Shown: positions 8,177-55,684 of the stretch, in pieces
Layout: every line of letters begins with the position of its first letter
How positions within the stretch are numbered: position 1 is the first letter of the stretch
Origin: Escherichia coli
GTDB lineage: Bacteria; Pseudomonadota; Gammaproteobacteria; Enterobacterales; Enterobacteriaceae
Assembly (NCBI RefSeq): GCF_044324875.1
Contig: NZ_CP172185.1
Reading direction: 5' to 3' (one strand)
DNA length: 64,000 nt
Program-made: the position numbers and the translations under genes
Notes under the pieces: generated by a model
Told to the model about the DNA's origin: nothing
The model's input: only the letters and a program-made list of their open reading frames with translations
Databases searched by the model: none

Positions 8177-9746
8177 TGTGTTTCTCCGAAACAGATGCGG
8201 TGCCTGAAGGCAAAAAATCATGCCAGGTGCTACGTTGTGCAGGCAGGTCGTGCGTCCCTGAGAGGACTATAGTGGAAGCGCCCGCCAGGATCCTGATGAC
8301 AGGTTGTGGAATATGCGTTCCCATCGCCAGCATCATGACCAGCAGAATCACCATTGGCGAGGTGGTCAACCAGCCAAGTTCACCCCGGTTAACGGCCTGC
8401 GGCGGTTTCGCCATTAACACCCGCGCAGCCATCCGTACCAGGCCCGCCAGCACCAGCGTTAACAGAAATAACAGCAGGACGATAAGCAGCAGATGATTAC
8501 GCGCCAGTCCGGCGGTAACGGTCATAAATTCGCTAAGAAAAATGTTGAAGGGCGGCATCCCGGCCAGCGCCAGCGCACCGCCGCCAAACAACACGGCGGT
8601 AAATGGCATGATTTTGAGCATCCCACAGACGACGTTGAGATCGCGCGTGCCGTACTTGAGCAGTACATTGCCGGAACCGCAGAACAACAGCGTTTTTGCC
8701 AGACTGTGGTTTAAGGTGTGCAGCAGCGCGGCAAAAATTCCCAGCGGCCCGCCAATGCCTAACGCCACCGCGACCAGTCCCATGTTCTCCACGCTGGAGT
8801 ACGCCAGCAGACGCTTAATGTCCCGCTGTACCAGAATGAAAAATGCCGCCACGGCAACCGACAACATGCCGAAGATGAGCAACAACCGGTTGGGGAAATC
8901 GCTGCCGATGGCCTGGCAAATAATGATGTAATAGCGAATCAGCACCAACAGCGCGCAGTTCAGCAATACGGCGGAGAGCAGGGCGCTGACCGGACTCGGC
9001 GCTTCACTGTGAGCATCTGGCAGCCAGGCGTGCATGGGGAATAGCCCGGTTTTAGTGCCAAAGCCAATTAGCACGAACACAAAGGCCAACAGCATTAATG
9101 TTGGGTCAAGCAAGGACGATTGCTTAAGAACCTCGCTCCAGAATATCGCCATTTCTGCCTGCGGCATAACGCTGGCGGCGTTGGCGTATACCAGCACGGT
9201 ACCGAACAGACCAAAAGCGACACCAACAGTACAAATAATGATGTACTTCCATGCAGCTTCCAGCGATGAACGCTGACCGTAAATGCCTACCAGAAACGCC
9301 GAGCTTAAGGTGGTGGCTTCGATCGCCGCCCACATCACAATAAGGTTATTGCTGGTGACAACCAGCAGCATGGTGAACAAAAACAGATGGAAGAAACCGT
9401 AGTAATCGCACAGCGTAACGGGTGAAAGCTCGCCGTGTGCCACTTCATGACGCATGTAGCCAATCGAGTAAACACCGGTGAGAAAGCCAATCACACCAAG
9501 AATGGCGAGGAACAAACCGCCCAGACCATCAATGTGAAGCCACAGTCCCGCAGCGAATATTTCTCCCGCATCAGCGGCAGTTTGGACCACCCACAGTGCC
9601 AGAATCAGCAGCAGTGTGATCCCTAAGCCATGTAGTACTGTCACCGTGCGAGTCGCAGAGTGTCCCCGTTTCCGGCAGGCAAAACAGAGCAGCGAAAAAA
9701 GCAGCGGCGTGAGCAGGAGTAAAGCGAACATCACAGAATAACTCAT
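8166..9746 (-). CDS. hyfF: Hydrogenase-4 membrane subunit, complex I antiporter-like (NuoL/M/N family)
   Basis: 526 aa polytopic membrane ORF, matches HyfF. Confidence 0.93.
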
Positions 9747-16185: not shown

Positions 16186-16757
16186 TACTTAACTCCATCC
16201 TGTTCATCATGTTGGGAATAATTGACGACGTTAATACTGCCTTGTGCATTGAGTTCTGTACATAGGGCTTTGAACGCTTGCTCAATATTTGCTGCGTCCG
16301 CAGATGCGGGGCTGTGGGCGGTTATCTGAATATGCAACTGCGCAGCCCGTTCATTTTCAGCAGGTTGCGTGCGTGACACCAGCTCCGCAATGTTCATATG
16401 ATGCGCGTCGAAAAGTGCTGTGAAGCGTTCAATTAAATGCGGGGAGTCTGCCACATCGACCTGAACCCAGACAGATGCTGGCATTGGCGGACGCGGACGC
16501 GCCGTCGTGCGCTTCATCACGATTAAAAGATCCAGTTCTGCACCTTTCAACGGTAACGTTGATTCAATCAGAGTAATGGCATTCCATGAACCGGAAAGCA
16601 GCATGATAAACGTGAACTCTTCTCCCAGCATCGCCAGGCGACTGTCTTCAATATTACAGCCGCAACTACTGACATGACGGGTGATGGTGTTCACAATTCC
16701 AGGGCGATCGGCACCCAACGCAGTGATCACCAGATAATGTTGCGATGACAGTGTCAA
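16185..16757 (-). CDS. gcvR: Glycine cleavage system transcriptional repressor GcvR
   Basis: 190 aa from TTG start at 16757 (MTLSSQHYLVITALGADRPGIV...); track ORF is extended 22 codons; stop overlaps bcp start by 1 nt. Confidence 0.85.
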   Translation of the reverse strand: MTLSSQHYLVITALGADRPGIVNTITRHVSSCGCNIEDSRLAMLGEEFTFIMLLSGSWNAITLIESTLPLKGAELDLLIVMKRTTARPRPPMPASVWVQVDVADSPHLIERFTALFDAHHMNIAELVSRTQPAENERAAQLHIQITAHSPASADAANIEQAFKALCTELNAQGSINVVNYSQHDEQDGVK

Positions 16758-23604: not shown

Positions 23605-23682
23605 GGCCTGATAAGACGCGTGATGCGTCGTATCAGGCATCGTTCACCATTGCCGGATGCGGCGTTAACGCCTTATCCGGCC
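23605..23682. repeat. REP/BIME element (two REP palindromic units) between ypfH and ypfN
   Basis: gtaggcctgataagacgcg...gcgtcgtatcaggcat and tgccggatgcggcgttaacgccttatccggcc, the classic E. coli REP (PU) signatures. Confidence 0.75.
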
Positions 23683-40839: not shown

Positions 40840-41175
40840 ATGGATAAAGAACGCATCATTCAGGAATTTGTGCCCGGCAAACAGGTCACGCTGGCGCATC
40901 TCATCGCGCATCCCGGCGAGGAACTGGCGAAGAAAATCGGCGTTCCTGATGCGGGCGCAATCGGCATTATGACGCTAACTCCTGGCGAAACGGCGATGAT
41001 CGCCGGTGATTTAGCATTGAAAGCCGCTGATGTGCATATCGGTTTTCTCGACCGCTTCAGCGGTGCATTGGTGATTTATGGCTCGGTGGGCGCAGTAGAA
41101 GAAGCATTATCACAAACCGTCAGCGGTTTAGGTCGCTTATTAAATTATACGCTTTGTGAAATGACCAAAAGTTAA
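40840..41175 (+). CDS. eutS: Ethanolamine utilisation microcompartment shell protein EutS (BMC domain)
   Basis: 111 aa from ATG 40840 ([23 protein letters not shown]...); track ORF is extended 24 codons into the promoter. Confidence 0.9.
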
Positions 41176-41187
41176 TACGAGGCATTC

Positions 41188-41667
41188 ATGAAACGAATTG
41201 CGTTTGTGGGTACCGTCGGGGCAGGAAAAACAACGTTATTTAATGCGTTGCAGGGGAATTATACCCTCGCCAGAAAAACACAGACCGTGGAATTTAATGA
41301 TAAGGGCGATATTGATACGCCGGGTGAATATTTTAGCCATCCCCGCTGGTATCACGCCTTAATTACCACGCTACAGGATGTGGACATGCTGATCTATGTC
41401 CATGGCGCAAATGACCCGGAAAGCCGATTGCCTGCCGGGTTGCTGGATATTGGCGTCAGCAAACGGCAAATCGCCATCATCAGTAAAACGGACATGCCGG
41501 ATGCTGACGTCGCCGCAACGCGAAAGTTATTGCTTGAGACGGGCTTCGAGGAGCCGATTTTCGAGCTAAACAGCCACGACCCGCAAAGCGTGCAGCAACT
41601 GGTGGATTATCTGGCATCTCTCACCAAACAGGAGGAAGCAGGTGAAAAAACTCATCACAGCGAATGA
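41188..41667 (+). CDS. eutP: Ethanolamine utilisation GTPase/acetate-kinase-like protein EutP
   Basis: 159 aa; Walker A GTVGAGKTT. Confidence 0.92.
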   Translation: MKRIAFVGTVGAGKTTLFNALQGNYTLARKTQTVEFNDKGDIDTPGEYFSHPRWYHALITTLQDVDMLIYVHGANDPESRLPAGLLDIGVSKRQIAIISKTDMPDADVAATRKLLLETGFEEPIFELNSHDPQSVQQLVDYLASLTKQEEAGEKTHHSE

Positions 41668-42343
41668 TATTCGTGAAGCACACGCGCGCGGCGAACAGGC
41701 AATGTCCGTGGTTCTGCGCGCCAGCATTATTACCCCGGAAGCCCGTGAAGTGGCAGATCTACTGGGTTTTACCATCACTGAATGTGATGAATCGACCCCG
41801 GTAACGGCGTCCGTTCCCGCCAGCGTGCCAGCCGATAAAACCGAAAGCCAGCGCATCCGCGAAACCATCATCGCCCAGCTACCGGAAGGCCAGTTTACCG
41901 AAAGCCTGGTCGCGCAGCTGATGGAAAAAGTGATGAAGGAAAAACAGTCACTGGAGCAGGGTGCAATGCAGCCGAGTTTCAAATCGGTTACCGGCAAAGG
42001 CGGCATCAAAGTTATTGATGGCAGCAGCGTCAAGTTTGGTCGTTTTGACGGCGCACAGCCACACTGCGTCGGATTAACGGATCTGGTCACCGGAGACGAC
42101 GGCAGCAGCATGGCCGCTGGTTTTATGCAGTGGGAGAACGCCTTCTTCCCGTGGACCCTGAACTATGACGAAATCGACATGGTACTGGAAGGGGAACTGC
42201 ACGTTCGCCACGAAGGCGAAACCATGATCGCCAAAGCAGGCGACGTGATGTTTATCCCGAAAGGCTCCAGCATCGAATTTGGTACGACATCCAGCGTGAA
42301 ATTCCTGTATGTCGCCTGGCCGGCTAACTGGCAATCCCTATGA
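41642..42343 (+). CDS. eutQ: Ethanolamine utilisation cupin-fold protein EutQ
   Basis: 233 aa; GTG start overlapping the eutP 3' end by 26 nt. Confidence 0.9.
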   Translation: MKKLITANDIREAHARGEQAMSVVLRASIITPEAREVADLLGFTITECDESTPVTASVPASVPADKTESQRIRETIIAQLPEGQFTESLVAQLMEKVMKEKQSLEQGAMQPSFKSVTGKGGIKVIDGSSVKFGRFDGAQPHCVGLTDLVTGDDGSSMAAGFMQWENAFFPWTLNYDEIDMVLEGELHVRHEGETMIAKAGDVMFIPKGSSIEFGTTSSVKFLYVAWPANWQSL

Positions 42344-43143
42344 AAGATTTCATCACCGAAGCATGGCTAAGAGCGAACCATACGCTCAGCGAAGGCGCAG
42401 AGATCCATCTCCCTGCGGACAGTCGCCTGACGCCCTCTGCCCGGGAGTTGCTGGAAAGCCGCCATCTGCGCATCAAGTTTATTGACGAGCAGGGCCGCCT
42501 GTTTGTTGACGATGAACAGCAGCAGCCGCAGCCCGTTCATGGGCTGACCAGTAGCGATGAACATCCGCAGGCGTGCTGCGAACTGTGCCGCCAGCCGGTA
42601 GCAAAAAAGCCGGATACGCTGACTCACCTGTCGGCGGAAAAAATGGTCGCCAAAAGCGATCCGCGCCTGGGTTTTCGCGCTGTTCTCGACAGCACCATTG
42701 CGCTGGCAGTGTGGCTGCAAATTGAACTGGCAGAACCGTGGCAGCCATGGCTGGCGGACATCCGCTCGCGTCTTGGCAACATTATGCGCGCCGATGCGCT
42801 CGGGGAACCGCTGGCCTACCAGGCGATTGTCGGGCTTTCTGACGAAGATCTGCATCGGCTTTCTCATCAGCCGCTGCGCTATCTCGACCACGATCATCTG
42901 GTGCCGGAAGCCAGCCACGGGCGCGATGCTGCGTTGCTCAATCTGCTACGCACCAAAGTGCGGGAAACCGAAACCGTAGCGGCGCAGGTGTTTATAACCC
43001 GCAGTTTTGAAGTATTACGCCCGGACATCTTGCAGGCGCTGAACCGCCTTTCGAGCACGGTCTACGTGATGATGATCCTGAGCGTAACGAAGCAGCCTCT
43101 AACGGTGAAGCAGATCCAACAACGACTGGGGGAAACGCAATGA
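42340..43143 (+). CDS. eutT: Ethanolamine utilisation cob(I)alamin adenosyltransferase EutT
   Basis: 267 aa; 4-nt overlap with eutQ stop. Confidence 0.92.
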
Positions 43144-44156
43144 TTATTGAACGTTGTCGTGAACTGGCGTTGCGAGCGCCCGCCAGAGTGGTTTTTCCGG
43201 ATGCGTTAGATCAACGTGTGCTGAAAGCCGCGCAATATTTACATCAACAAGGTCTGGCAACGCCCATTCTGGTCGCCAATCCGTTTGAACTTCGTCAGTT
43301 TGCGCTCAGTCACGGCGTGGCGATGGACGGGCTACAGGTGATAGATCCGCATGGCAACCTCGCAATGCGGGAAGAATTTGCTCTCCGCTGGCTGGCCCGT
43401 GCGGGCGAAAAAACGCCGCCGGATGCGTTGGAAAAACTCACCGATCCGCTGATGTTCGCTGCCGCAATGGTCAGCGCCGGGACAGCGGATGTCTGTATCG
43501 CGGGCAATCTCTCTTCCACGGCGAATGTGCTGCGTGCCGGATTACGCATTATTGGCTTACAGCCAGGCTGTAAAACGCTCTCCTCCATTTTCCTGATGCT
43601 GCCACAGTACAGCGGTCCGGCGTTGGGTTTTGCCGATTGCAGCGTGGTACCACAGCCGACGGCGGCACAACTGGCGGATATCGCGCTTGCCAGCGCCGAA
43701 ACCTGGCGCGCCATCACCGGAGAAGAGCCGCGCGTGGCGATGTTGTCGTTTTCCAGTAACGGCAGCGCCCGTCACCCCTGCGTTGCCAATGTCCAGCAGG
43801 CGACAGAAATCGTCCGTGAGCGCGCGCCGCAGTTGGTAGTCGATGGCGAGTTGCAGTTTGACGCCGCCTTCGTGCCGGAAGTGGCGGCGCAAAAAGCGCC
43901 TGCCAGCCCGCTACAAGGCAAGGCCAATGTGATGGTTTTTCCGTCGCTGGAAGCCGGAAATATTGGCTACAAAATCGCACAACGACTCGGCGGATATCGT
44001 GCCGTCGGGCCATTGATACAAGGACTTGCCGCGCCGATGCACGATCTCTCTCGTGGTTGTAGCGTGCAGGAAATTATCGAGCTGGCGCTGGTGGCAGCTG
44101 TGCCGCGTCAGACAGAAGTAAACCGTGAAAGCAGTTTACAAACACTGGTTGAATGA
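43140..44156 (+). CDS. eutD: Phosphotransacetylase EutD (EutI)
   Basis: 338 aa PTA-family protein; 4-nt overlap with eutT. Confidence 0.93.
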
Positions 44157-44194
44157 ACGGTCCCGTTCTGGACCCTGATAAAGAGGAAAGCACA

Positions 44195-44488
44195 ATGGAA
44201 GCATTAGGAATGATCGAAACCCGGGGCCTGGTTGCACTGATTGAGGCTTCTGACGCGATGGTGAAAGCTGCGCGCGTCAAGCTGGTTGGTGTTAAGCAGA
44301 TTGGCGGCGGCCTGTGTACTGCCATGGTTCGTGGTGATGTTGCAGCCTGTAAAGCCGCGACCGACGCAGGTGCTGCAGCGGCACAGCGTATCGGCGAGCT
44401 GGTATCTGTACACGTTATCCCGCGTCCGCACGGCGACCTGGAAGAAGTCTTCCCGATCGGCCTGAAAGGCGATAGCAGCAACCTGTAA
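44195..44488 (+). CDS. eutM: Major microcompartment shell protein EutM (BMC domain hexamer)
   Basis: 97 aa from ATG 44195 ([28 protein letters not shown]...); AAGAGGAAAG SD; track ORF is extended 14 codons. Confidence 0.93.
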
Positions 44489-44497
44489 TCACCCTGT

Positions 44498-44556
44498 GTG
44501 ACGTCGATTCGGGCGTCACGCTCTCTCCTTTTTCAGTTTACCTTCCGCGGAAGGTA
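44498..44556 (+). promoter_or_regulatory. Two stem-loops in the eutM-eutN spacer (candidate intra-operon attenuator or mRNA processing/stability element)
   Basis: Hairpin gtgacg/cgtcac followed by T-run, then 18-bp perfect palindrome taccttccgcggaaggta. Confidence 0.45.
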
Positions 44557-44594
44557 GGGGGAGCTTTTACCTGAAATACGCCACGGAGGCGGGT

Positions 44595-44882
44595 ATGAAA
44601 CTGGCAGTCGTCACTGGACAAATTGTTTGTACCGTACGCCATCACGGACTGGCGCATGACAAATTGCTGATGGTGGAAATGATTGATCCACAAGGTAATC
44701 CTGACGGGCAATGCGCCGTCGCCATCGACAATATTGGCGCGGGAACCGGGGAGTGGGTGTTGCTGGTGAGTGGCAGTTCTGCCCGCCAGGCGCATAAAAG
44801 CGAAACGTCACCGGTCGATCTGTGCGTGATTGGCATCGTCGATGAGGTGGTGACTGGCGGTCAGGTAATTTTCCACAAATAA
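44595..44882 (+). CDS. eutN: Microcompartment vertex protein EutN (EutN/CcmL pentamer family)
   Basis: 95 aa; GGAGG SD upstream. Confidence 0.92.
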   Translation: MKLAVVTGQIVCTVRHHGLAHDKLLMVEMIDPQGNPDGQCAVAIDNIGAGTGEWVLLVSGSSARQAHKSETSPVDLCVIGIVDEVVTGGQVIFHK

Positions 44883-44893
44883 GGCAGAACATC

Positions 44894-46297
44894 ATGAATC
44901 AACAGGATATTGAACAGGTGGTGAAAGCGGTACTGCTGAAAATGCAAAGCAGTGATACGCCGCCCGCCGCCGTTCATGAGATGGGCGTTTTCGCGTCCCT
45001 GGATGACGCCGTTGCGGCAGCCAAAATTGCCCAGCAAGGGTTAAAAAGCGTGGCAATGCGCCAGTTAGCCATTGCTGCCATTCGTGAGGCAGGCGAAAAA
45101 CACGCCAGAGATTTAGCGGAACTTGCCGTCAGTGAAACCGGCATGGGCCGCGTTGAAGATAAATTTGCCAAAAACGTCGCTCAGGCGCGCGGCACGCCAG
45201 GCGTTGAGTGTCTCTCTCCGCAGGTGCTGACCGGCGACAACGGCCTGACCTTAATTGAAAACGCGCCCTGGGGCGTAGTGGCTTCGGTGACGCCTTCCAC
45301 TAACCCGGCGGCAACCGTAATTAACAATGCCATCAGCCTGATTGCGGCGGGCAACAGCGTCATTTTTGCCCCGCATCCGGCGGCGAAAAAAGTCTCCCAG
45401 CGGGCGATCACGCTGCTCAACCAGGCGATTGTTGCCGCAGGCGGGCCGGAAAACTTACTGGTTACTGTGGCAAATCCGGATATCGAAACCGCGCAACGCT
45501 TGTTCAAGTTTCCGGGTATCGGCCTGCTGGTGGTGACCGGCGGCGAAGCGGTAGTAGAAGCGGCACGTAAACACACCAATAAACGTCTGATTGCCGCAGG
45601 CGCTGGCAACCCGCCGGTAGTGGTGGATGAAACCGCTGACCTCGCCCGTGCTGCTCAGTCCATCGTCAAAGGCGCGTCTTTCGATAACAACATCATTTGT
45701 GCCGACGAAAAGGTACTGATTGTTGTGGATAGCGTAGCCGATGAACTGATGCGTCTGATGGAAGGCCAGCACGCGGTGAAACTGACCGCAGAGCAGGCGC
45801 AGCAGCTGCAACCGGTGTTGCTGAAAAATATCGACGAGCGCGGAAAAGGCACCGTCAGCCGTGACTGGGTTGGTCGCGATGCGGCGAAAATCGCGGCGGC
45901 AATCGGCCTTAAAGTTCCGGAACAAACGCGACTGCTGTTTGTAGAAACCACCGCAGAACATCCGTTTGCTGTGACTGAACTGATGATGCCGGTGCTGCCC
46001 GTCGTGCGCGTCGCCAACGTGGCGGATGCCATTGCGCTGGCGGTGAAACTGGAAGGCGGTTGCCATCACACGGCGGCAATGCACTCGCGCAACATCGAGA
46101 ACATGAACCAGATGGCGAACGCCATTGATACCAGCATTTTCGTTAAGAACGGACCGTGCATTGCCGGGCTGGGGCTGGGCGGGGAAGGCTGGACCACCAT
46201 GACCATCACCACGCCAACCGGTGAAGGGGTAACCAGCGCGCGTACGTTTGTCCGTCTGCGTCGCTGTGTATTAGTTGATGCGTTTCGCATTGTTTAA
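44894..46297 (+). CDS. eutE: CoA-acylating acetaldehyde dehydrogenase EutE
   Basis: 467 aa aldehyde dehydrogenase-family protein. Confidence 0.93.
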   Translation: MNQQDIEQVVKAVLLKMQSSDTPPAAVHEMGVFASLDDAVAAAKIAQQGLKSVAMRQLAIAAIREAGEKHARDLAELAVSETGMGRVEDKFAKNVAQARGTPGVECLSPQVLTGDNGLTLIENAPWGVVASVTPSTNPAATVINNAISLIAAGNSVIFAPHPAAKKVSQRAITLLNQAIVAAGGPENLLVTVANPDIETAQRLFKFPGIGLLVVTGGEAVVEAARKHTNKRLIAAGAGNPPVVVDETADLARAAQSIVKGASFDNNIICADEKVLIVVDSVADELMRLMEGQHAVKLTAEQAQQLQPVLLKNIDERGKGTVSRDWVGRDAAKIAAAIGLKVPEQTRLLFVETTAEHPFAVTELMMPVLPVVRVANVADAIALAVKLEGGCHHTAAMHSRNIENMNQMANAIDTSIFVKNGPCIAGLGLGGEGWTTMTITTPTGEGVTSARTFVRLRRCVLVDAFRIV

Positions 46298-46307
46298 GGA
46301 GTAACCG

Positions 46308-47144
46308 ATGGCGCACGACGAACAATGGCTCATCCCGCGTCTGCAAACGGCGGCAACGCTGTGTAACCAGACGCCTGCCGCAACGGAATCTCCGCTGTGG
46401 CTGGGGGTGGATCTGGGCACCTGCGATGTGGTGTCGATGGTTGTCGACCGCGACGGTCAGCCGGTGGCGGTATGCCTCGACTGGGCTGATGTGGTCCGCG
46501 ACGGCATCGTCTGGGATTTCTTCGGTGCGGTCACCATTGTTCGTCGCCATCTTGACACCCTCGAGCAGCAATTCGGTCGCCGTTTTAGCCATGCGGCGAC
46601 CTCTTTTCCTCCAGGTACGGACCCGCGTATTTCCATCAACGTGCTGGAGTCTGCCGGGCTGGAAGTGAGCCATGTGCTGGATGAGCCAACCGCAGTCGCG
46701 GATCTGCTGCAACTGGACAACGCCGGTGTAGTGGATATCGGCGGCGGCACCACCGGCATTGCCATCGTGAAAAAGGGCAAGGTGACTTACTCGGCAGATG
46801 AAGCCACCGGCGGACATCACATCTCTCTGACTCTCGCCGGAAATCGTCGTATTTCGCTGGAGGAGGCAGAGCAGTACAAGCGCGGTCACGGTGAAGAGAT
46901 TTGGCCCGCGGTGAAACCGGTGTACGAAAAAATGGCGGACATTGTCGCCCGGCATATTGAAGGGCAGGGCATTACTGATTTATGGCTGGCGGGCGGCTCT
47001 TGTATGCAACCGGGCGTGGCGGAACTGTTTCGCAAACAATTCCCGGCGTTACAGGTGCATTTACCGCAGCACAGTTTGTTTATGACCCCGCTGGCGATCG
47101 CCAGTAGCGGGCGAGAGAAAGCGGAGGGGATCTATGCAAAATGA
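46308..47144 (+). CDS. eutJ: Ethanolamine utilisation chaperone-like protein EutJ (actin/Hsp70 fold)
   Basis: 278 aa; VDIGGGTTGIA phosphate-binding loop. Confidence 0.92.
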   Translation: MAHDEQWLIPRLQTAATLCNQTPAATESPLWLGVDLGTCDVVSMVVDRDGQPVAVCLDWADVVRDGIVWDFFGAVTIVRRHLDTLEQQFGRRFSHAATSFPPGTDPRISINVLESAGLEVSHVLDEPTAVADLLQLDNAGVVDIGGGTTGIAIVKKGKVTYSADEATGGHHISLTLAGNRRISLEEAEQYKRGHGEEIWPAVKPVYEKMADIVARHIEGQGITDLWLAGGSCMQPGVAELFRKQFPALQVHLPQHSLFMTPLAIASSGREKAEGIYAK

Positions 47145-48321
47145 ATTGCAGACCGCGCTCTTTCAGGCGTTCGATACCCTGAATCTGCAACGGGTAAAAA
47201 CATTTAGCGTTCCACCGGTGACGCTTTGCGGTCCGGGCGCGGTGAGCAGTTGTGGGCAGCAAGCGCAAACGCGTGGGCTGAAACATCTGTTCGTGATGGC
47301 AGACAGCTTTTTGCATCAGGCAGGGATGACCGCCGGGCTGACGCGTAGCCTGGCCGTTAAAGGTATCGCCATGACGCTCTGGCCATGTCCGGTGGGCGAA
47401 CCATGCATCACCGACGTGTGTGCAGCCGTGGCGCAGTTGCGTGAATCAGGCTGTGACGGGGTGATTGCGTTTGGCGGCGGCTCGGTGCTGGATGCAGCAA
47501 AAGCCGTGGCGTTGCTGGTGACGAACCCGGATAGCACGCTGGCAGAGATGTCAGAAACCAGCGTTCTGCAACCGCGCCTGCCGTTGATTGCCATTCCAAC
47601 GACCGCCGGAACCGGCTCTGAAACCACCAACGTAACGGTGATTATCGACGCGGTGAGCGGGCGCAAGCAGGTGTTAGCCCATGCCTCGCTGATGCCGGAT
47701 GTGGCGATTCTCGACGCTGCGCTGACCGAAGGCGTGCCGTCGCATGTCACGGCGATGACCGGTATCGACGCGTTAACCCATGCTATTGAAGCGTACAGCG
47801 CGCTGAACGCCACACCGTTTACCGACAGCCTGGCGATTGGTGCCATTGCGATGATTGGCAAATCGCTGCCGAAAGCGGTGGGCTACGGTCACGACCTTGC
47901 CGCCCGCGAGAGCATGTTGCTGGCTTCATGTATGGCGGGAATGGCGTTTTCCAGTGCGGGGCTTGGGTTGTGCCACGCGATGGCGCATCAGCCAGGGGCG
48001 GCGCTGCATATTCCGCACGGTCTGGCGAACGCCATGCTACTGCCAACGGTGATGGAGTTTAACCGGATGGTCTGTCGTGAACGCTTTAGTCAGATTGGTC
48101 GGGCGCTGCGAACTAAAAAATCCGACGATCGTGACGCTATTAACGCGGTAAGTGAGCTGATTGCGGAAGTCGGGATTGGTAAACGACTGGGCGATATTGG
48201 TGCGACATCTGCGCATTACGGCGCATGGGCGCAGGCCGCGCTGGAAGATATTTGTCTGCGCAGCAACCCGCGTACCGCCAGCCTGGAGCAGATTATTGGT
48301 CTGTATGCTGCGGCGCAATAA
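47134..48321 (+). CDS. eutG: Iron-containing alcohol dehydrogenase EutG
   Basis: 395 aa; GGGSVLD motif; overlaps eutJ 3' end by 11 nt. Confidence 0.93.
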   Translation: MQNELQTALFQAFDTLNLQRVKTFSVPPVTLCGPGAVSSCGQQAQTRGLKHLFVMADSFLHQAGMTAGLTRSLAVKGIAMTLWPCPVGEPCITDVCAAVAQLRESGCDGVIAFGGGSVLDAAKAVALLVTNPDSTLAEMSETSVLQPRLPLIAIPTTAGTGSETTNVTVIIDAVSGRKQVLAHASLMPDVAILDAALTEGVPSHVTAMTGIDALTHAIEAYSALNATPFTDSLAIGAIAMIGKSLPKAVGYGHDLAARESMLLASCMAGMAFSSAGLGLCHAMAHQPGAALHIPHGLANAMLLPTVMEFNRMVCRERFSQIGRALRTKKSDDRDAINAVSELIAEVGIGKRLGDIGATSAHYGAWAQAALEDICLRSNPRTASLEQIIGLYAAAQ

Positions 48322-48325
48322 AAGT

Positions 48326-48440
48326 GTACGGACAGTCCCCTCGCCCCTTTGGGGAGAGGGTTAGGGTGAGGGGAACAGAGTCGCGCCGGTGCAAATAATT
48401 ACCCTCACCCCGACCCCTCGGCTTCCAGAGTGAGGGAAAA
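48326..48440. repeat. GC-rich extragenic repeat, copy 2 plus partial inverted copy (eutG-eutH gap)
   Basis: gtacggacagtcccctcgcccctttggggagagggttagggtgaggggaaca, then ccctcaccc 28 nt downstream as an inverted partner of gggtgaggg. Confidence 0.7.
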
Positions 48441-48490
48441 ACCCACTTTCAGCATTGGCAATAAATAACAACTAACAGGGAGTAAAGGCG

Positions 48491-49717
48491 ATGGGAATTA
48501 ACGAAATCATCATGTACATCATGATGTTCTTTATGCTGATAGCTGCCGTAGACAGGATCCTGTCGCAGTTCGGCGGTTCTGCTCGTTTCCTCGGTAAGTT
48601 CGGTAAAAGTATCGAAGGATCAGGCGGTCAGTTCGAAGAAGGCTTTATGGCAATGGGCGCACTGGGCCTGGCGATGGTCGGTATGACCGCGCTGGCACCG
48701 GTACTGGCTCACGTACTCGGGCCGGTGATTATCCCGGTTTACGAAATGCTCGGCGCAAACCCATCGATGTTCGCCGGAACACTGCTGGCGTGCGATATGG
48801 GCGGCTTCTTCCTCGCCAAAGAGCTGGCGGGCGGCGACGTAGCAGCGTGGCTATACTCTGGGTTAATTCTCGGGTCGATGATGGGGCCAACGATTGTGTT
48901 TTCCATTCCGGTGGCGCTCGGCATTATCGAACCTTCTGACCGTCGTTATCTGGCGCTCGGCGTGCTGGCGGGCATTGTGACCATTCCGATTGGCTGTATT
49001 GCCGGTGGTCTGGTGGCTATGTATTCCGGTGTGCAGATCAACGGTCAGCCAGTGGAATTCACCTTTGCCCTGATCCTGATGAACATGATCCCGGTACTTA
49101 TCGTCGCGGTACTGGTGGCGCTGGGGCTGAAATTCATCCCGGAAAAAATGATCAACGGCTTCCAGATCTTCGCCAAATTCCTCGTTGCATTGATCACCCT
49201 CGGTCTTGCCGCTGCGGTAGTGAAATTCCTGCTCGGTTGGGAACTGATCCCCGGTCTGGATCCGATCTTCATGGCTCCAGGCGATAAACCCGGTGAAGTG
49301 ATGCGCGCCATTGAAGTTATCGGTTCTATCTCCTGCGTGCTGTTAGGGGCGTACCCGATGGTACTGCTGCTGACCCGCTGGTTTGAAAAACCGCTGATGA
49401 GCGTCGGTAAGGTGCTGAATATGAACAACATCGCGGCAGCTGGCATGGTGGCAACGCTTGCCAACAACATCCCAATGTTTGGCATGATGAAGCAGATGGA
49501 TACCCGCGGCAAAGTCATCAACTGCGCCTTCGCCGTTTCCGCTGCTTTCGCCCTGGGTGACCACTTAGGCTTCGCCGCTGCCAACATGAACGCCATGATT
49601 TTCCCGATGATTGTCGGCAAGTTGATCGGCGGCGTAACGGCGATTGGCGTGGCGATGATGCTGGTGCCAAAAGAAGACGCGACCGCGGCCAAAACCGAAG
49701 CGGAGGCACAATCGTGA
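48491..49717 (+). CDS. eutH: Ethanolamine permease EutH
   Basis: 408 aa polytopic membrane protein. Confidence 0.93.
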   Translation: MGINEIIMYIMMFFMLIAAVDRILSQFGGSARFLGKFGKSIEGSGGQFEEGFMAMGALGLAMVGMTALAPVLAHVLGPVIIPVYEMLGANPSMFAGTLLACDMGGFFLAKELAGGDVAAWLYSGLILGSMMGPTIVFSIPVALGIIEPSDRRYLALGVLAGIVTIPIGCIAGGLVAMYSGVQINGQPVEFTFALILMNMIPVLIVAVLVALGLKFIPEKMINGFQIFAKFLVALITLGLAAAVVKFLLGWELIPGLDPIFMAPGDKPGEVMRAIEVIGSISCVLLGAYPMVLLLTRWFEKPLMSVGKVLNMNNIAAAGMVATLANNIPMFGMMKQMDTRGKVINCAFAVSAAFALGDHLGFAAANMNAMIFPMIVGKLIGGVTAIGVAMMLVPKEDATAAKTEAEAQS

Positions 49718-51117
49718 ACACTCGCCAGCTACTGAGCGTCGGTATCGATATCGGCACCACCACCACCCAGGTGATCTTCTCCCACCTGGAGCTGGTTAAC
49801 CGTGCGGCGGTGTCGCAGGTGCCGCGCTACGAATTCATCAAACGCGAAATTAGCTGGCAAAGCCCGGTGTTCTTTACCCCTGTCGATAAACAGGGTGGTT
49901 TAAAAGAAGCGGAACTGAAATCGCTGATTTTAGAGCAATATCAGGCTGCGGGCATTGCGCCGGAAAGCGTTGATTCTGGTGCCATCATCATCACCGGTGA
50001 AAGCGCGAAAACCCGCAACGCTCGCCCGGCGGTGATGACGCTCTCCCAGTCGCTGGGCGATTTTGTCGTCGCCAGCGCCGGGCCGCATCTCGAATCCGTG
50101 ATCGCCGGTCACGGTGCCGGGGCGCAAACCCTTTCTGAACAACGGCTGTGTCGGGTACTGAATATCGACATCGGCGGTGGCACCGCGAACTACGCCCTGT
50201 TCGATGCCGGAAAAATCAGCGGCACTGCCTGCCTCAACGTCGGTGGTCGCCTGCTGGAAACCGACAGCCAGGGGCGCGTGGTTTACGCTCATAAACCGGG
50301 GCAGATGATTGTGGATGAGTGCTTCGGTGCAGGCAGTGACGCCCGTTCGCTGACCGGCGCGCAGCTGGTGCAGGTTACCCGCCGGATGGCAGAGCTGATT
50401 GTCGAAGTGATTGACGGAACGCTCTCGCCGCTCGCGCAGGCATTAATGCAAACCGGTTTGCTGCCCGCAGGTGTTACGCCCGAAATCATTACGCTTTCTG
50501 GCGGCGTGGGCGAATGTTATCGCCACCAGCCCGCCGCCCCGTTCTGTTTTGCCGATATCGGCCCGCTGCTGGCAACGGCGCTGTATGACCATCCGCGCCT
50601 GCGTGAGATGAACGTGCAGTTTCCGGCGCAAACCGTGCGCGCCACGGTGATTGGCGCGGGTGCACATACCCTTTCGCTCTCTGGCAGCACAATCTGGCTG
50701 GAGGGCGTCCAACTGCCGCTGCGCAATTTGCCGGTGGCGATCCCGATTGATGAAACGGATCTGGTGAGTGCCTGGCAACAGGCGCTGATTCAGCTGGATC
50801 TTGATCCCAAAACTGACGCGTACGTGCTGGCGCTTCCCGCCTCGCTGCCTGTGCGTTACGCCGCGGTACTGACGGTCATCAACGCGCTGGTCGATTTCGT
50901 CGCGCGTTTTCCGAATCCGCATCCCCTGTTGGTGGTGGCCGGGCAGGACTTTGGTAAAGCTCTGGGCATGTTGTTGCGCCCACAGCTACAACAACTCCCG
51001 TTGGCAGTCATTGACGAAGTGATTGTCCGCGCGGGGGACTATATCGACATTGGTACGCCTCTTTTTGGCGGATCGGTTGTGCCGGTGACGGTGAAATCAC
51101 TCGCATTTCCTTCCTGA
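49714..51117 (+). CDS. eutA: Ethanolamine ammonia-lyase reactivating factor EutA
   Basis: 467 aa; 4-nt overlap with eutH stop. Confidence 0.93.
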   Translation: MNTRQLLSVGIDIGTTTTQVIFSHLELVNRAAVSQVPRYEFIKREISWQSPVFFTPVDKQGGLKEAELKSLILEQYQAAGIAPESVDSGAIIITGESAKTRNARPAVMTLSQSLGDFVVASAGPHLESVIAGHGAGAQTLSEQRLCRVLNIDIGGGTANYALFDAGKISGTACLNVGGRLLETDSQGRVVYAHKPGQMIVDECFGAGSDARSLTGAQLVQVTRRMAELIVEVIDGTLSPLAQALMQTGLLPAGVTPEIITLSGGVGECYRHQPAAPFCFADIGPLLATALYDHPRLREMNVQFPAQTVRATVIGAGAHTLSLSGSTIWLEGVQLPLRNLPVAIPIDETDLVSAWQQALIQLDLDPKTDAYVLALPASLPVRYAAVLTVINALVDFVARFPNPHPLLVVAGQDFGKALGMLLRPQLQQLPLAVIDEVIVRAGDYIDIGTPLFGGSVVPVTVKSLAFPS

Positions 51118-51128
51118 GGGAACGACTT

Positions 51129-52496
51129 ATGAAACTAAAGACCACATTGTTCGGCAATGTATATCAGTTTAAGGATGTAAAAGAGGTGCTGGCTAAAGCC
51201 AACGAACTGCGTTCGGGGGATGTGCTGGCGGGCGTCGCAGCGGCAAGCTCACAGGAGCGCGTGGCGGCAAAGCAGGTGTTGTCGGAAATGACCGTAGCGG
51301 ACATCCGCAATAATCCGGTGATTGCTTATGAAGATGACTGCGTGACGCGGCTGATTCAGGACGACGTTAACGAAACGGCCTACAACCAGATTAAAAACTG
51401 GAGCATCAGCGAACTGCGTGAATACGTCCTGAGCGACGAAACCAGCGTTGACGACATTGCCTTTACCCGCAAAGGGTTGACCTCGGAAGTGGTCGCGGCG
51501 GTAGCGAAGATTTGCTCCAACGCGGACCTGATCTACGGCGCGAAGAAAATGCCGGTGATCAAAAAGGCCAATACCACCATCGGTATTCCGGGCACCTTCA
51601 GCGCCCGCTTGCAGCCAAACGACACCCGTGACGACGTGCAAAGTATCGCCGCGCAAATCTACGAAGGGCTTTCTTTCGGGGTGGGCGATGCGGTGATCGG
51701 CGTTAACCCGGTGACTGACGACGTGGAAAACTTAAGCCGCGTGTTGGACACCATCTATGGCGTGATCGACAAATACAACATTCCGACCCAGGGCTGCGTG
51801 CTGGCGCACGTCACCACCCAGATTGAAGCAATTCGTCGCGGCGCGCCTGGCGGACTGATTTTCCAGAGTATCTGCGGCAGCGAAAAAGGGCTGAAAGAGT
51901 TTGGCGTGGAACTGGCGATGCTCGACGAAGCGCGCGCAGTGGGCGCGGAGTTCAACCGTATCGCCGGGGAAAACTGCCTCTACTTCGAAACCGGACAAGG
52001 CTCTGCGCTATCCGCTGGCGCTAACTTCGGCGCAGACCAGGTGACGATGGAAGCGCGTAACTACGGGCTGGCGCGTCATTACGATCCGTTTATCGTCAAC
52101 ACCGTGGTCGGCTTTATTGGGCCGGAGTATCTCTACAACGACCGCCAGATTATCCGTGCGGGCTTAGAAGATCACTTTATGGGCAAGCTGAGCGGCATCT
52201 CTATGGGCTGTGACTGCTGCTACACCAACCACGCTGACGCTGACGCTGACCAGAACCTCAACGAAAACCTCATGATCCTGCTCGCCACCGCAGGCTGCAA
52301 CTACATCATGGGGATGCCGCTGGGCGATGACATCATGCTCAACTATCAGACCACCGCATTCCACGACACTGCCACTGTGCGTCAGTTACTCAACCTGCGC
52401 CCGTCACCGGAGTTTGAACGCTGGCTGGAAAGCATGGGCATTATGGCAAACGGTCGCCTGACCAAACGGGCGGGCGATCCGTCACTGTTCTTCTGA
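51129..52496 (+). CDS. eutB: Ethanolamine ammonia-lyase large (heavy) subunit
   Basis: 455 aa from ATG 51129 (MKLKTTLFGNVYQFKDVKEV...); contains in-frame (GCTGAC)3 repeat encoding ADADAD. Confidence 0.95.
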   Translation: MKLKTTLFGNVYQFKDVKEVLAKANELRSGDVLAGVAAASSQERVAAKQVLSEMTVADIRNNPVIAYEDDCVTRLIQDDVNETAYNQIKNWSISELREYVLSDETSVDDIAFTRKGLTSEVVAAVAKICSNADLIYGAKKMPVIKKANTTIGIPGTFSARLQPNDTRDDVQSIAAQIYEGLSFGVGDAVIGVNPVTDDVENLSRVLDTIYGVIDKYNIPTQGCVLAHVTTQIEAIRRGAPGGLIFQSICGSEKGLKEFGVELAMLDEARAVGAEFNRIAGENCLYFETGQGSALSAGANFGADQVTMEARNYGLARHYDPFIVNTVVGFIGPEYLYNDRQIIRAGLEDHFMGKLSGISMGCDCCYTNHADADADQNLNENLMILLATAGCNYIMGMPLGDDIMLNYQTTAFHDTATVRQLLNLRPSPEFERWLESMGIMANGRLTKRAGDPSLFF

Positions 52497-52516
52497 TGAC
52501 GCGGAGATAACACATC

Positions 52517-53404
52517 ATGGATCAAAAACAGATTGAAGAAATTGTACGCAGCGTGATGGCGTCAATGGGACAAGCGGCCCCCGCGCCGTCAGAAGCAAAG
52601 TGCGCCACCACCACCTGTGCGGCACCGGTGACCTCGGAAAGCTGCGCGCTGGACTTAGGCTCTGCGGAAGCAAAAGTGTGGATTGGTGTTGAAAACCCGC
52701 ATCGCGCAGACGTATTAACAGAACTGCGTCGCAGCACCGTGGCCCGCGTTTGTACCGGTCGTGCCGGTCCGCGTCCGCGTACCCAGGCGTTGCTGCGTTT
52801 CCTGGCCGATCACTCTCGTTCGAAAGATACCGTACTGAAAGAAGTGCCGGAAGAGTGGGTGAAAGCGCAGGGCTTGCTGGAAGTCCGCTCTGAAATTAGC
52901 GACAAAAATCTCTACCTGACTCGTCCGGATATGGGCCGCCGCCTGTGTGCAGAAGCTGTTGAAGCCCTGAAAGCACAGTGTGTTGCTAATCCGGACGTGC
53001 AGGTCGTTATTTCTGATGGCCTGTCAACTGATGCGATCACCGTGAACTACGAAGAGATCCTGCCGCCGCTGATGGCGGGCCTGAAACAGGCCGGGCTGAA
53101 AGTCGGTACGCCATTCTTTGTTCGTTATGGTCGCGTGAAGATTGAAGATCAGATCGGTGAGATCCTCGGCGCGAAAGTAGTGATCCTGCTGGTGGGGGAA
53201 CGCCCGGGATTAGGGCAGTCAGAAAGCCTCTCCTGCTACGCCGTTTACTCGCCGCGTATGGCGACCACCGTTGAGGCCGATCGCACCTGTATTTCTAACA
53301 TTCACCAGGGCGGCACGCCGCCGGTTGAAGCCGCAGCCGTCATTGTGGATTTGGCGAAACGTATGCTGGAGCAGAAAGCATCCGGCATCAACATGACCCG
53401 ATAA
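52517..53404 (+). CDS. eutC: Ethanolamine ammonia-lyase small (light) subunit
   Basis: 295 aa. Confidence 0.95.
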
Positions 53405-53413
53405 GGAGGCATC

Positions 53414-54073
53414 ATGCCAGCTTTAGATTTGATTCGACCGTCGGTCACCGCCATGCGGGTGATTGCCTCCGTTAACGCCGAATTTGCGCGTGAACTGAAA
53501 TTGCCGCCGCATATTCGTAGCCTCGGGCTGATTTCTGCTGATTCCGATGACGTCACCTACATTGCGGCTGACGAAGCGACCAAGCAGGCGATGGTCGAAG
53601 TGGTGTATGGCCGCTCGCTGTATGCGGGCGCTGCACACGGACCGTCACCGACTGCCGGTGAAGTGCTGATTATGCTCGGTGGGCCAAACCCGGCGGAAGT
53701 GCGTGCTGGTCTGGATGCGATGGTTGCGCATATTGAAAATGGCGCGGCTTTCCAGTGGGCTAATGATGCGCAAGATACGGCATTCCTGGCACATGTAGTT
53801 TCGCGTACCGGTTCTTATCTCTCATCAACCGCCGGGATCACGCTTGGCGATCCGATGGCGTATCTGGTGGCACCGCCGCTGGAAGCGACCTACGGCATTG
53901 ATGCAGCGTTGAAATCTGCCGACGTACAGCTGGTGACCTATGTCCCGCCACCGTCTGAAACCAACTACTCGGCAGCATTTTTAACCGGTAGCCAGGCCGC
54001 GTGTAAAGCAGCCTGTAACGCCTTTACCGATGCAGTGCTGGAAATCGCGCGTAATCCAATCCAGCGTGCGTAA
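53414..54073 (+). CDS. eutL: Microcompartment shell protein EutL (tandem BMC domain trimer)
   Basis: 219 aa. Confidence 0.93.
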
Positions 54074-54085
54074 CGGAGGTTGCCG

Positions 54086-54586
54086 ATGATCAATGCACTG
54101 GGATTGCTGGAAGTGGACGGCATGGTCGCCGCGATAGATGCAGCTGATGCCATGCTCAAAGCAGCTAACGTTCGTCTGCTCAGTCACGAAGTGCTTGACC
54201 CTGGTCGCCTAACGCTGGTGGTGGAAGGCGATCTGGCGGCGTGTCGTGCGGCGCTGGACGCAGGTTGTGCTGCCGCGATGCGTACCGGGCGTGTCATCAG
54301 CCGTAAGGAGATCGGTCGGCCAGACGATGACACCCAGTGGCTGGTTACTGGCTTTAACCGCCAGCCGAAGCAACCCGTAAAGGAACCCGACGCGCCAGTT
54401 ATCGTCGCGGAATCTGCTGACGAGTTGTTGGCGCTGTTAACATCAGTACGTCAGGGAATGACGGCAGGAGAAGTGGCAGCCCACTTTGGCTGGCCGCTGG
54501 AAAAAGCCAGAAATGCGCTCGAACAGCTCTTTTCTGCCGGGACGTTACGTAAACGCAGTAGTCGTTACCGTCTCAAGCCCCATTAA
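54086..54586 (+). CDS. eutK: Microcompartment shell protein EutK (BMC domain plus C-terminal nucleic-acid-binding-like domain)
   Basis: 166 aa from ATG 54086 (MINALGLLEVDGMVAAIDAADAMLKAANV...). Confidence 0.9.
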   Translation: MINALGLLEVDGMVAAIDAADAMLKAANVRLLSHEVLDPGRLTLVVEGDLAACRAALDAGCAAAMRTGRVISRKEIGRPDDDTQWLVTGFNRQPKQPVKEPDAPVIVAESADELLALLTSVRQGMTAGEVAAHFGWPLEKARNALEQLFSAGTLRKRSSRYRLKPH

Positions 54587-54598
54587 CCTGTCGGAGGT

Positions 54599-54622
54599 GC
54601 CGGGTGTCCTACAACACCCGGC
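54599..54622 (+). promoter_or_regulatory. Stem-loop in the eutK-eutR spacer
   Basis: Perfect 9-bp stem gccgggtgt/acacccggc with 6-nt loop, ending 10 nt before eutR ATG; flanked by direct cattaac repeats. Confidence 0.45.
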
Positions 54623-54631
54623 ATTAACATC

Positions 54632-55684
54632 ATGAAAAAGACCCGTACAGCCAATTTGCACCATCTTTATCATGAACCCTTACCCGAAAACCTGAAGCTC
54701 ACGCCGAAGGTCGAAGTGGATAATGTTCATCAACGACAGACAACGGACGTCTATGAACATGCTTTGACAATTACCGCCTGGCAGCAGATTTACGATCAGC
54801 TGCATCCGGGCAAGTTTCATGGTGAATTTACGGAAATTCTACTCGATGATATTCAGGTTTTTCGTGAATACACTGGTCTGGCGCTGCGTCAGTCGTGCCT
54901 GGTCTGGCCGAACTCGTTCTGGTTTGGCATTCCGGCGACGCGCGGTGAGCTGGGATTTATCGGTTCGCAATGTCTGGGAAGCGCAGAAATTGCGACGCGC
55001 CCGGGTGGAACTGAGTTTGAATTAAGTACGCCGGACGATTACACGATCCTTGGCGTAGTGCTTTCTGAAGATGTCATCACTCGTCAGGCTAACTTTTTGC
55101 ATAATCCGGATCGGGTATTACATATGCTGCGTAGCCAGTCGGCGCTGGAAGTGAAAGAGCAGCATAAAGCCGCGCTGTGGGGCTTTGTCCAACAGGCGCT
55201 GGCGACGTTTTGCGAGAACCCGGAAAATCTCCATCAGCCTGCAGTGCGAAAAGTGCTGGGGGATAATTTGCTCATGGCGATGGGGGCGATGCTGGAAGAA
55301 GCGCAGCCGATGATGACGGCGGAAAGCATCAGTCATCAGAGTTACCGTCGATTGCTTTCCCGCGCCCGTGAATATGTGCTGGAAAACATGTCCGAACCGG
55401 TGACGGTGCTGGACTTGTGTAATCAACTGCATGTCAGCCGCCGCACGCTACAAAACGCGTTTCACGCCATTTTGGGCATTGGTCCGAACGCGTGGCTGAA
55501 ACGTATTCGCCTGAACGCCGTGCGCCGCGAACTCATAAGTCCGTGGTCACAAAGCACAACGGTAAAAGACGCCGCCATGCAGTGGGGATTCTGGCATCTT
55601 GGGCAATTTGCCACGGATTATCAGCAACTGTTTGCCGAGAAGCCGTCACTGACGCTGCATCAGCGGATGCGAGAGTGGGGGTGA
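54632..55684 (+). CDS. eutR: AraC-family transcriptional activator of the eut operon
   Basis: 350 aa; C-terminal AraC-type HTH. Confidence 0.93.

Follow-up and report, generated by a model that had tools for sequence, protein, structure and literature searches.

The closest described counterpart of the protein studied here is the Escherichia coli EutB of PDB entry 3ABO and related entries, a chain of 453 aa that forms the large subunit of ethanolamine ammonia-lyase. The window, by which we mean the whole stretch of 64,000 nucleotides that was analysed, encodes the same protein, belonging to the same Pfam family and likewise flanked, within the operon, by eutA on the upstream side and eutC on the downstream side. 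Compared with 3ABO, its beta8-alpha8 loop is longer by two residues, Ala-Asp, and reads HADADADQ rather than HADADQ. All three length forms of EutB already have NCBI accessions. The TOE3-type 455-aa protein (WP_208482491.1) is changed at the same site, by the same unit and, it would seem, by the same mechanism as that of the window; it carries Phe216, and its gene is 41 SNPs away from the window allele, which indicates an independent origin. The 451-aa one-unit protein (WP_001610811.1) is also changed at this site and by this unit, and represents the reciprocal contraction. In RefSeq, the 455-aa TOE3 protein is named "ethanolamine ammonia-lyase subunit EutB" and the 453-aa and 451-aa proteins "subunit alpha", presumably because the length variant triggers different naming evidence.

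Other comparisons are offered by repeats that vary in length elsewhere. The repeats of hyfF, eutE and gcvR are, like the eutB tract, perfect intragenic repeats of period 6 (14-15 bp) whose alleles differ by one unit; their variants are found in tens to hundreds of complete genomes. The eutB variant, by contrast, occurs in a single one, and falls within a loop of conserved length beside a catalytic residue. The contingency loci of Haemophilus, Neisseria and Campylobacter share with the eutB tract a change in unit number by slipped-strand mispairing. Their tracts are long and are usually built of 1-5-bp units, a change in which alters the reading frame or the spacing of the promoter, and their switching rates are high. 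Unlike them, the eutB tract has two to three in-frame units and very rare variants. Nothing here is new as regards gene, enzyme, type of mutation or allele, and the allele matters little beyond good annotation, EutB having been thoroughly characterised and the allele deposited many times. A search of the literature found no paper discussing length polymorphism of the eutB tract, a polymorphism that comes as no surprise.

The eut operon of the window and its closest relative

On the E. coli chromosome, the window extends from bepA to yfeX and takes in the hyf operon, maeB and the complete eut operon. Its closest complete genome is that of strain GN25 (99.2% identity over 15 kb). The features of the operon that concern us are the following:

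40840..55684, + strand: complete eut operon, eutS-P-Q-T-D(pta)-M-N-E-J-G-H-A-B-C-L-K-R, from a gene-by-gene BLAST against the GN25 annotation
51129..52496, + strand: eutB, ethanolamine ammonia-lyase large (alpha) subunit, 455-aa allele
52517..53404, + strand: eutC, ethanolamine ammonia-lyase small (beta) subunit, partner of EutB, intact, 295 aa

All 17 eut genes are full length and without internal stops in this comparison. The EutB of the window scores 681.3 bits against Pfam PF06751 (cut-off 25), over profile positions 1-434 of 435, and its residues 1-455 align to residues 1-453 of 3ABO chain A with an E-value of 0. The sole differences from the PDB chain are F216Y and the AD insertion, which appears as a two-residue gap in the PDB chain exactly at the tract. 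Judged from these alignments, the reading frame is a full-length EutB and a member of PF06751. Codon 216 (window 51774-51776) encodes Tyr in the window and in GN25, and Phe in 3ABO and in the TOE3-type allele. Four residues, Arg160, Gln162, Glu287 and Asp362, are reported in the crystal-structure paper on the E. coli enzyme to bind the substrate; all four are present in the EutB of the window and each is at least 90% conserved in the homolog alignment.

The neighbours of eutB are close. EutC (PF05985, 275.7 bits) starts 20 bp downstream of eutB, and the gap between eutA and eutB is 11 bp, with no prophage between these two genes in the window. A different arrangement was seen in an assembly that has the consensus-type 455-aa EutB, where a phage-type integrase gene (L008 605-1813, - strand) stands directly upstream of eutB, in the place of eutA; we take this to resemble the insertion of prophage CPZ-55 in K-12.

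The comparison with GN25 brought out two further differences. The eutC gene of GN25 (L002 8858-9745) is annotated as a pseudogene, and its sole difference from the eutC of the window is a G to T change at base 52, which turns codon 18 from GGA into the nonsense codon TGA. The closest relative of the window has thus lost ethanolamine ammonia-lyase by a different lesion. The second difference concerns the eutG-eutH intergenic region. The window has there (48322-48490) a spacer of 169 bp that includes a G-rich palindrome (…CCCTCGCCCCTTTGGGGAGAGGGTTAGGGTGAGGGG…), and the corresponding GN25 spacer (L002 4323-4837) is 515 bp long, with about five tandem REP/BIME-like units of ~100 bp. Identity to GN25 rises from 95.9-98% in eutE, eutJ and eutG to 99.7-100% from eutH to yfeX, and this jump across the spacer suggests that it may be a recombination boundary. 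An Rfam scan of the window returned a single match, naRNA4 (RF02564), a REP-derived nucleoid-associated RNA located between ypfH and ypfN (23605-23682, - strand; 85.7 bits for a gathering score of 59.5); it gave none at the eutB tract.

The repeat tract and its length alleles in E. coli

The starting point of this work was the original prediction of an (ACGCTG)x3 repeat inside eutB, encoding H-ADADAD-Q in a 455-aa EutB, on which the sequence, Tandem Repeats Finder and the translation of the open reading frame agree. Positions 52231-52250 read ACGCTGACGCTGACGCTGAC, a perfect (ACGCTG)x3.3 repeat (period 6, 3.3 copies and 100% matches in Tandem Repeats Finder). The tract is in frame within the 455-aa reading frame (51129..52496, + strand) and is translated as H368-A-D-A-D-A-D-Q375; which of the three units is the added one cannot be assigned. 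The elements of the tract are:

52212..52214, + strand: GAC codon of Asp362, in strand beta8, 6 residues ahead of His368; at least 90% conserved in the family
52231..52250, + strand: tandem repeat (ACGCTG)x3.3, one unit above the common E. coli allele (GN25 and nearly all complete genomes)
52233..52250, + strand: three GCT GAC codon pairs, Ala369-Asp374 (ADADAD), in the lengthened beta8-alpha8 loop, just ahead of helix alpha8, which starts at Gln375

This tract is the only repeat of period 6 and at least 20 bp in the 64-kb window. Mononucleotide shuffles of the window gave 0.0 such repeats, and 0.7 of at least 14 bp for 7 observed; a tract of 3.3 units, being absent from the shuffles, is not a product of chance. 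The ancestral state of 2.3 units (14 bp) belongs to a class of repeats that is common in this window.

The original prediction put the reference EutB of E. coli at 453 aa. This proved correct: PDB 3ABO and nearly all complete E. coli genomes have 453 aa, with two units (HADADQ), so that a reference protein of 455 aa with ADADAD, which would have spoken against an expansion, was not encountered. The same length of 453 aa is found in the EutB homologs of Citrobacter, Klebsiella, Serratia, Photorhabdus, Pseudomonas and more distant Proteobacteria, and the spacing of the motif YTNHAxxxQN is kept in 119 of the 120 closer homologs listed, the motif not being found in the remaining one. We take the length of Salmonella EutB to be 453 aa as well. 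The two Salmonella entries seen were irregular, one being an old nr entry of 452 aa and the other an entry of 447 aa with a different start; of these, the 447-aa entry was checked and carries HADADQ. Among the representatives of 50%-identity clusters and the close homologs sampled, no other lineage has ADADAD as its normal state.

The check proposed with the original prediction, that is, aligning the protein to reference EutB sequences and counting units across strains, revealed alleles of one, two and three units, with two units prevailing. A 64-bp query centred on the tract, with alleles told apart by identity band, matched 5,378 records of complete E. coli genomes. Only two of these reached 95% identity, TOE3, without a gap, and a low-coverage partial match; all others had a 6-base gap, which corresponds to the two-unit form. 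Taken together with the probes for other unit numbers, the two-unit form is present in all but two, TOE3 and EcE.CRE.COL, of the about 5,377 complete genomes that match this stretch. Longer alleles were sought with a 47-bp four-unit probe with 10-bp flanks, on which two-unit alleles cannot seed matches; a synthetic four-unit query with 22-bp flanks was uninformative, partial pieces of two-unit alleles being joined into "100%" matches. With the 47-bp probe, three units were found in TOE3 only, one of 5,426 complete genomes, and four units in none of them. A synthetic one-unit query likewise found a single genome of the 5,426, EcE.CRE.COL, whose eutB of 1,356 bp encodes a 451-aa protein with HADQ. 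Each length variant thus amounts to ~0.02% of complete genomes.

Exact-sequence look-ups in the NCBI, ENA and Logan assemblies widened this view. The exact 455-aa protein of the window is present on 186 contigs (223 collection blocks), the consensus-type 455-aa EutB on 49 contigs (114 blocks) and the 451-aa EutB on 86 contigs (151 blocks). Assemblies are known to go wrong by indels at repeats, and a sequencing or assembly artefact might be suspected at such a short tract. This explanation is scarcely credible, given that the identical protein comes from independent sources on that many contigs and blocks, that the eutB of one other locus (L004) shows 100% identity to that of the window, and that the change is clean, in frame and of a whole unit. 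The 455-aa allele of the window is rare, recurrent and already catalogued, and is a polymorphism of an ordinary kind. It could act as a lineage marker.

It had also been proposed that the repeat is a natural hotspot for in-frame length polymorphism. This point was addressed with the six other period-6 repeats of 14-15 bp in the window, all of them intragenic (in hyfF, gcvR, acrD, eutE, eutC and hemF), three of which were found to vary:

8563-8576: period-6 repeat in hyfF
16487-16501: period-6 repeat in gcvR
46166-46179: period-6 repeat in eutE

A composite probe, in which each of the seven repeats was represented by synthetic versions with one unit more (+1) and one unit fewer (-1), matched 344 complete E. 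coli genomes, and in the 60 rows listed the matches were +1 forms of hyfF, eutE, gcvR and eutB; these figures count genomes and not slippage events. The hyfF +1 form accounts for 30 of the rows listed and is present in dozens to about 200 genomes, including E24377A (1 mismatch), and probably makes up the majority of the 214 records with identities of 95-99%. Among the matches listed, the eutE +1 form occurs in at least 22 genomes, the gcvR +1 form in at least 7, including O111:H8 strains, and the eutB +1 form in TOE3 only. The comparison shows that hexamer repeats often vary in length, in frame, among E. coli genomes, and that few such variants are as rare as those of eutB. The hotspot claim therefore stands in part. 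Alleles of one, two and three units have arisen repeatedly on different backgrounds, as described below; on the other hand, each variant is found in one of 5,426 complete genomes, and since the hyfF, eutE and gcvR repeats vary in many more, the eutB tract is no exceptional hotspot.

Origin of the third unit

Compared with the two-unit eutB of GN25, the gene of the window has 6 bp more, that is, one ACGCTG, and two synonymous SNPs, with otherwise no amino-acid difference. An exact gain of one unit over the GN25 allele is the signature of slipped-strand expansion, in keeping with what had been predicted for the extra AD unit. The TOE3 eutB differs from that of the window by 41 SNPs, some of them as near the tract as 70 bp on its upstream side and 21 bp on its downstream side. 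Being 2 SNPs from GN25 and 41 from TOE3, the window allele is a recent offshoot of a two-unit allele of the GN25 type, independent of TOE3.

The wider sample of alleles points in the same direction. For the window allele, the nearest two-unit allele is 2 SNPs off and the nearest three-unit allele 16 SNPs off. Among the alleles sampled, the three-unit form is carried by at least six nucleotide backgrounds, 11-41 SNPs apart, and the one-unit form by at least four, 22-42 SNPs apart. In addition, two loci, L009 with three units and L013 with one, show no SNP difference, so that one backbone bears both forms. The occurrence of both variants on several backgrounds, and of both on one backbone, indicates that slippage recurs in both directions. 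Alleles that differ by whole units with near-identical flanks, and recurrence across backgrounds, are the two marks of a slippage polymorphism, and both are found at this tract. It provides a clean, well-controlled E. coli case of recurrent two-way slippage at a hexamer repeat of 14 bp.

From this pattern we infer the following mechanism. The common allele contains two overlapping 8-bp direct repeats, ACGCTGAC, at an offset of 6, which would let the nascent strand re-anneal one unit out of register. Slipped-strand mispairing during replication would then take the tract from two to three units, an in-frame gain of 6 bp; the product is a full-length EutB with one extra Ala-Asp, whose beta8-alpha8 loop passes from 9 to 11 residues. 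The expansion would be recent in the lineage of the window and would since have been inherited clonally by many isolates, while the same tract has expanded or contracted independently in other E. coli lineages, every variant still being rare. As to mechanism and origin, a recent, clonally inherited, in-frame expansion of one unit by replication slippage is thus very probably the history of this allele.

Another possibility is that the three-unit tract arose once and was then spread between E. coli lineages by homologous recombination. E. coli recombines frequently, and the window is a mosaic relative to GN25 across the eut operon. Against such a transfer, the window allele lies 2 SNPs from a two-unit allele, whereas the other three-unit alleles seen are all 16-41 SNPs away from it; SNPs between the window and TOE3 come within 21-70 bp of the tract, and one identical backbone bears the one-unit and the three-unit forms. 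A single origin by recombination is very unlikely and is already largely refuted for the window allele. Transfer of the tract was properly excluded for that allele only, and is possible between some of the other backgrounds.

Recurrence could also be read as a sign of function. The reversible gain and loss of AD units would, as at a contingency locus, tune or toggle ethanolamine ammonia-lyase activity and be adaptive. The repeated appearance of one-, two- and three-unit alleles, even on one identical backbone, and the vicinity of the tract to the active site would be expected on such a scheme. However, the tract has only two to three units, far short of the tracts of real contingency loci, each variant is found in about 0.02% of complete genomes, and the comparable hexamer repeats of hyfF, eutE and gcvR vary in far more genomes. 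The DNA repeat also follows simply from the choice of codons for a conserved Ala-Asp-Ala-Asp peptide. A switch of this kind is extremely unlikely at a tract that has so few units, rare variants and less polymorphism than the control repeats. Recurrent slippage at an ordinary hexamer repeat is the reading we retain, and the length variants of eutB would be neutral to mildly deleterious rather than adaptive. They are probably kept rare by weak purifying selection for a constant loop length, rarity alone being no proof of selection, as a hexamer repeat of 2.3 units has a low mutation rate anyway.

Loop length beside Asp362

Asp362 is, we assume, an active-site residue of the E. coli enzyme. The tract occupies the positions 6-12 residues after it, and the inserted stretch begins 7 residues past it. 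In the AlphaFold2 model of the 455-aa EutB (mean pLDDT 93.8), strand beta8 covers residues 359-363 and helix alpha8 residues 375-387, with the tract taking up the last part of the beta8-alpha8 loop. The 453-aa EutB of GN25, modelled with the same homolog set, starts helix alpha8 at the equivalent Gln (373). Since the helix starts at the same Gln in both models, the insertion would lengthen the loop from 9 to 11 residues. The active sites of TIM barrels sit on the C-terminal face of the barrel, and the beta8-alpha8 loop is predicted to lie on this catalytic face. The confidence of the model is lower around the insertion, mean pLDDT for residues 361-370 and 371-380 being 71 and 71 against 84 and 88 in the 453-aa control; a fall of this sort is partly expected where the alignment has gaps at query residues, and is no measure of stability.

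Of 90 diverse EutB representatives that were drawn from 50%-identity clusters, reach down to about 35% identity and cover residues 356-384, 84 show no indel in this segment, and only one, a very divergent protein, has an insertion at the same point. Across these sequences the length of the loop is strongly conserved, and this constancy makes an effect of the insertion on activity possible. No description of EutB residues 364-374 was found in the literature covered, which did not extend to the crystal-structure paper on the E. coli enzyme.

The extra Ala-Asp near Asp362 might disturb the active site or the interface with cobalamin or EutC, making the allele a loss-of-function or strongly impaired one, at an early stage of pseudogenisation. 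Such a reading bears on what the insertion does, and can stand together with an origin by slippage. The loop length fixed across the EutB family, the start of the insertion so close to a residue conserved at 90% or more, the local fall in pLDDT and the failure of length variants ever to reach an appreciable frequency all agree with impairment, and the nonsense mutation in the eutC of GN25 hints that the eut functions can be dispensable in this clade. Yet the window has 17 intact eut genes of 17 and no other lesion, and the persistence of the allele on 186 contigs is compatible with a successful lineage; moreover, the insertion continues the native pattern of Ala-Asp pairs, and in the model the helix still starts at the same Gln. 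Impairment is thus a tentative reading, which we regard as possible but doubtful.

A more speculative proposal is that the AD loop acts as a natural length "dial", the 451-, 453- and 455-aa forms differing in activity, cofactor handling or rate of inactivation, and that lineages such as that of the window, with its 186 contigs, have been selected for an altered ethanolamine metabolism in their niche. We consider this very unlikely indeed. Whatever its effect in nature, the series of 451-, 453- and 455-aa proteins, which differ beside a catalytic Asp, could be used to probe the role of loop length in B12-dependent radical catalysis.

Five of the distant EutB representatives (P0141, P0142 and P0144-P0146) are much longer, with 684-753 aa, and the match to EutB spans only their first ~450 residues; they may be EutB-EutC fusions.
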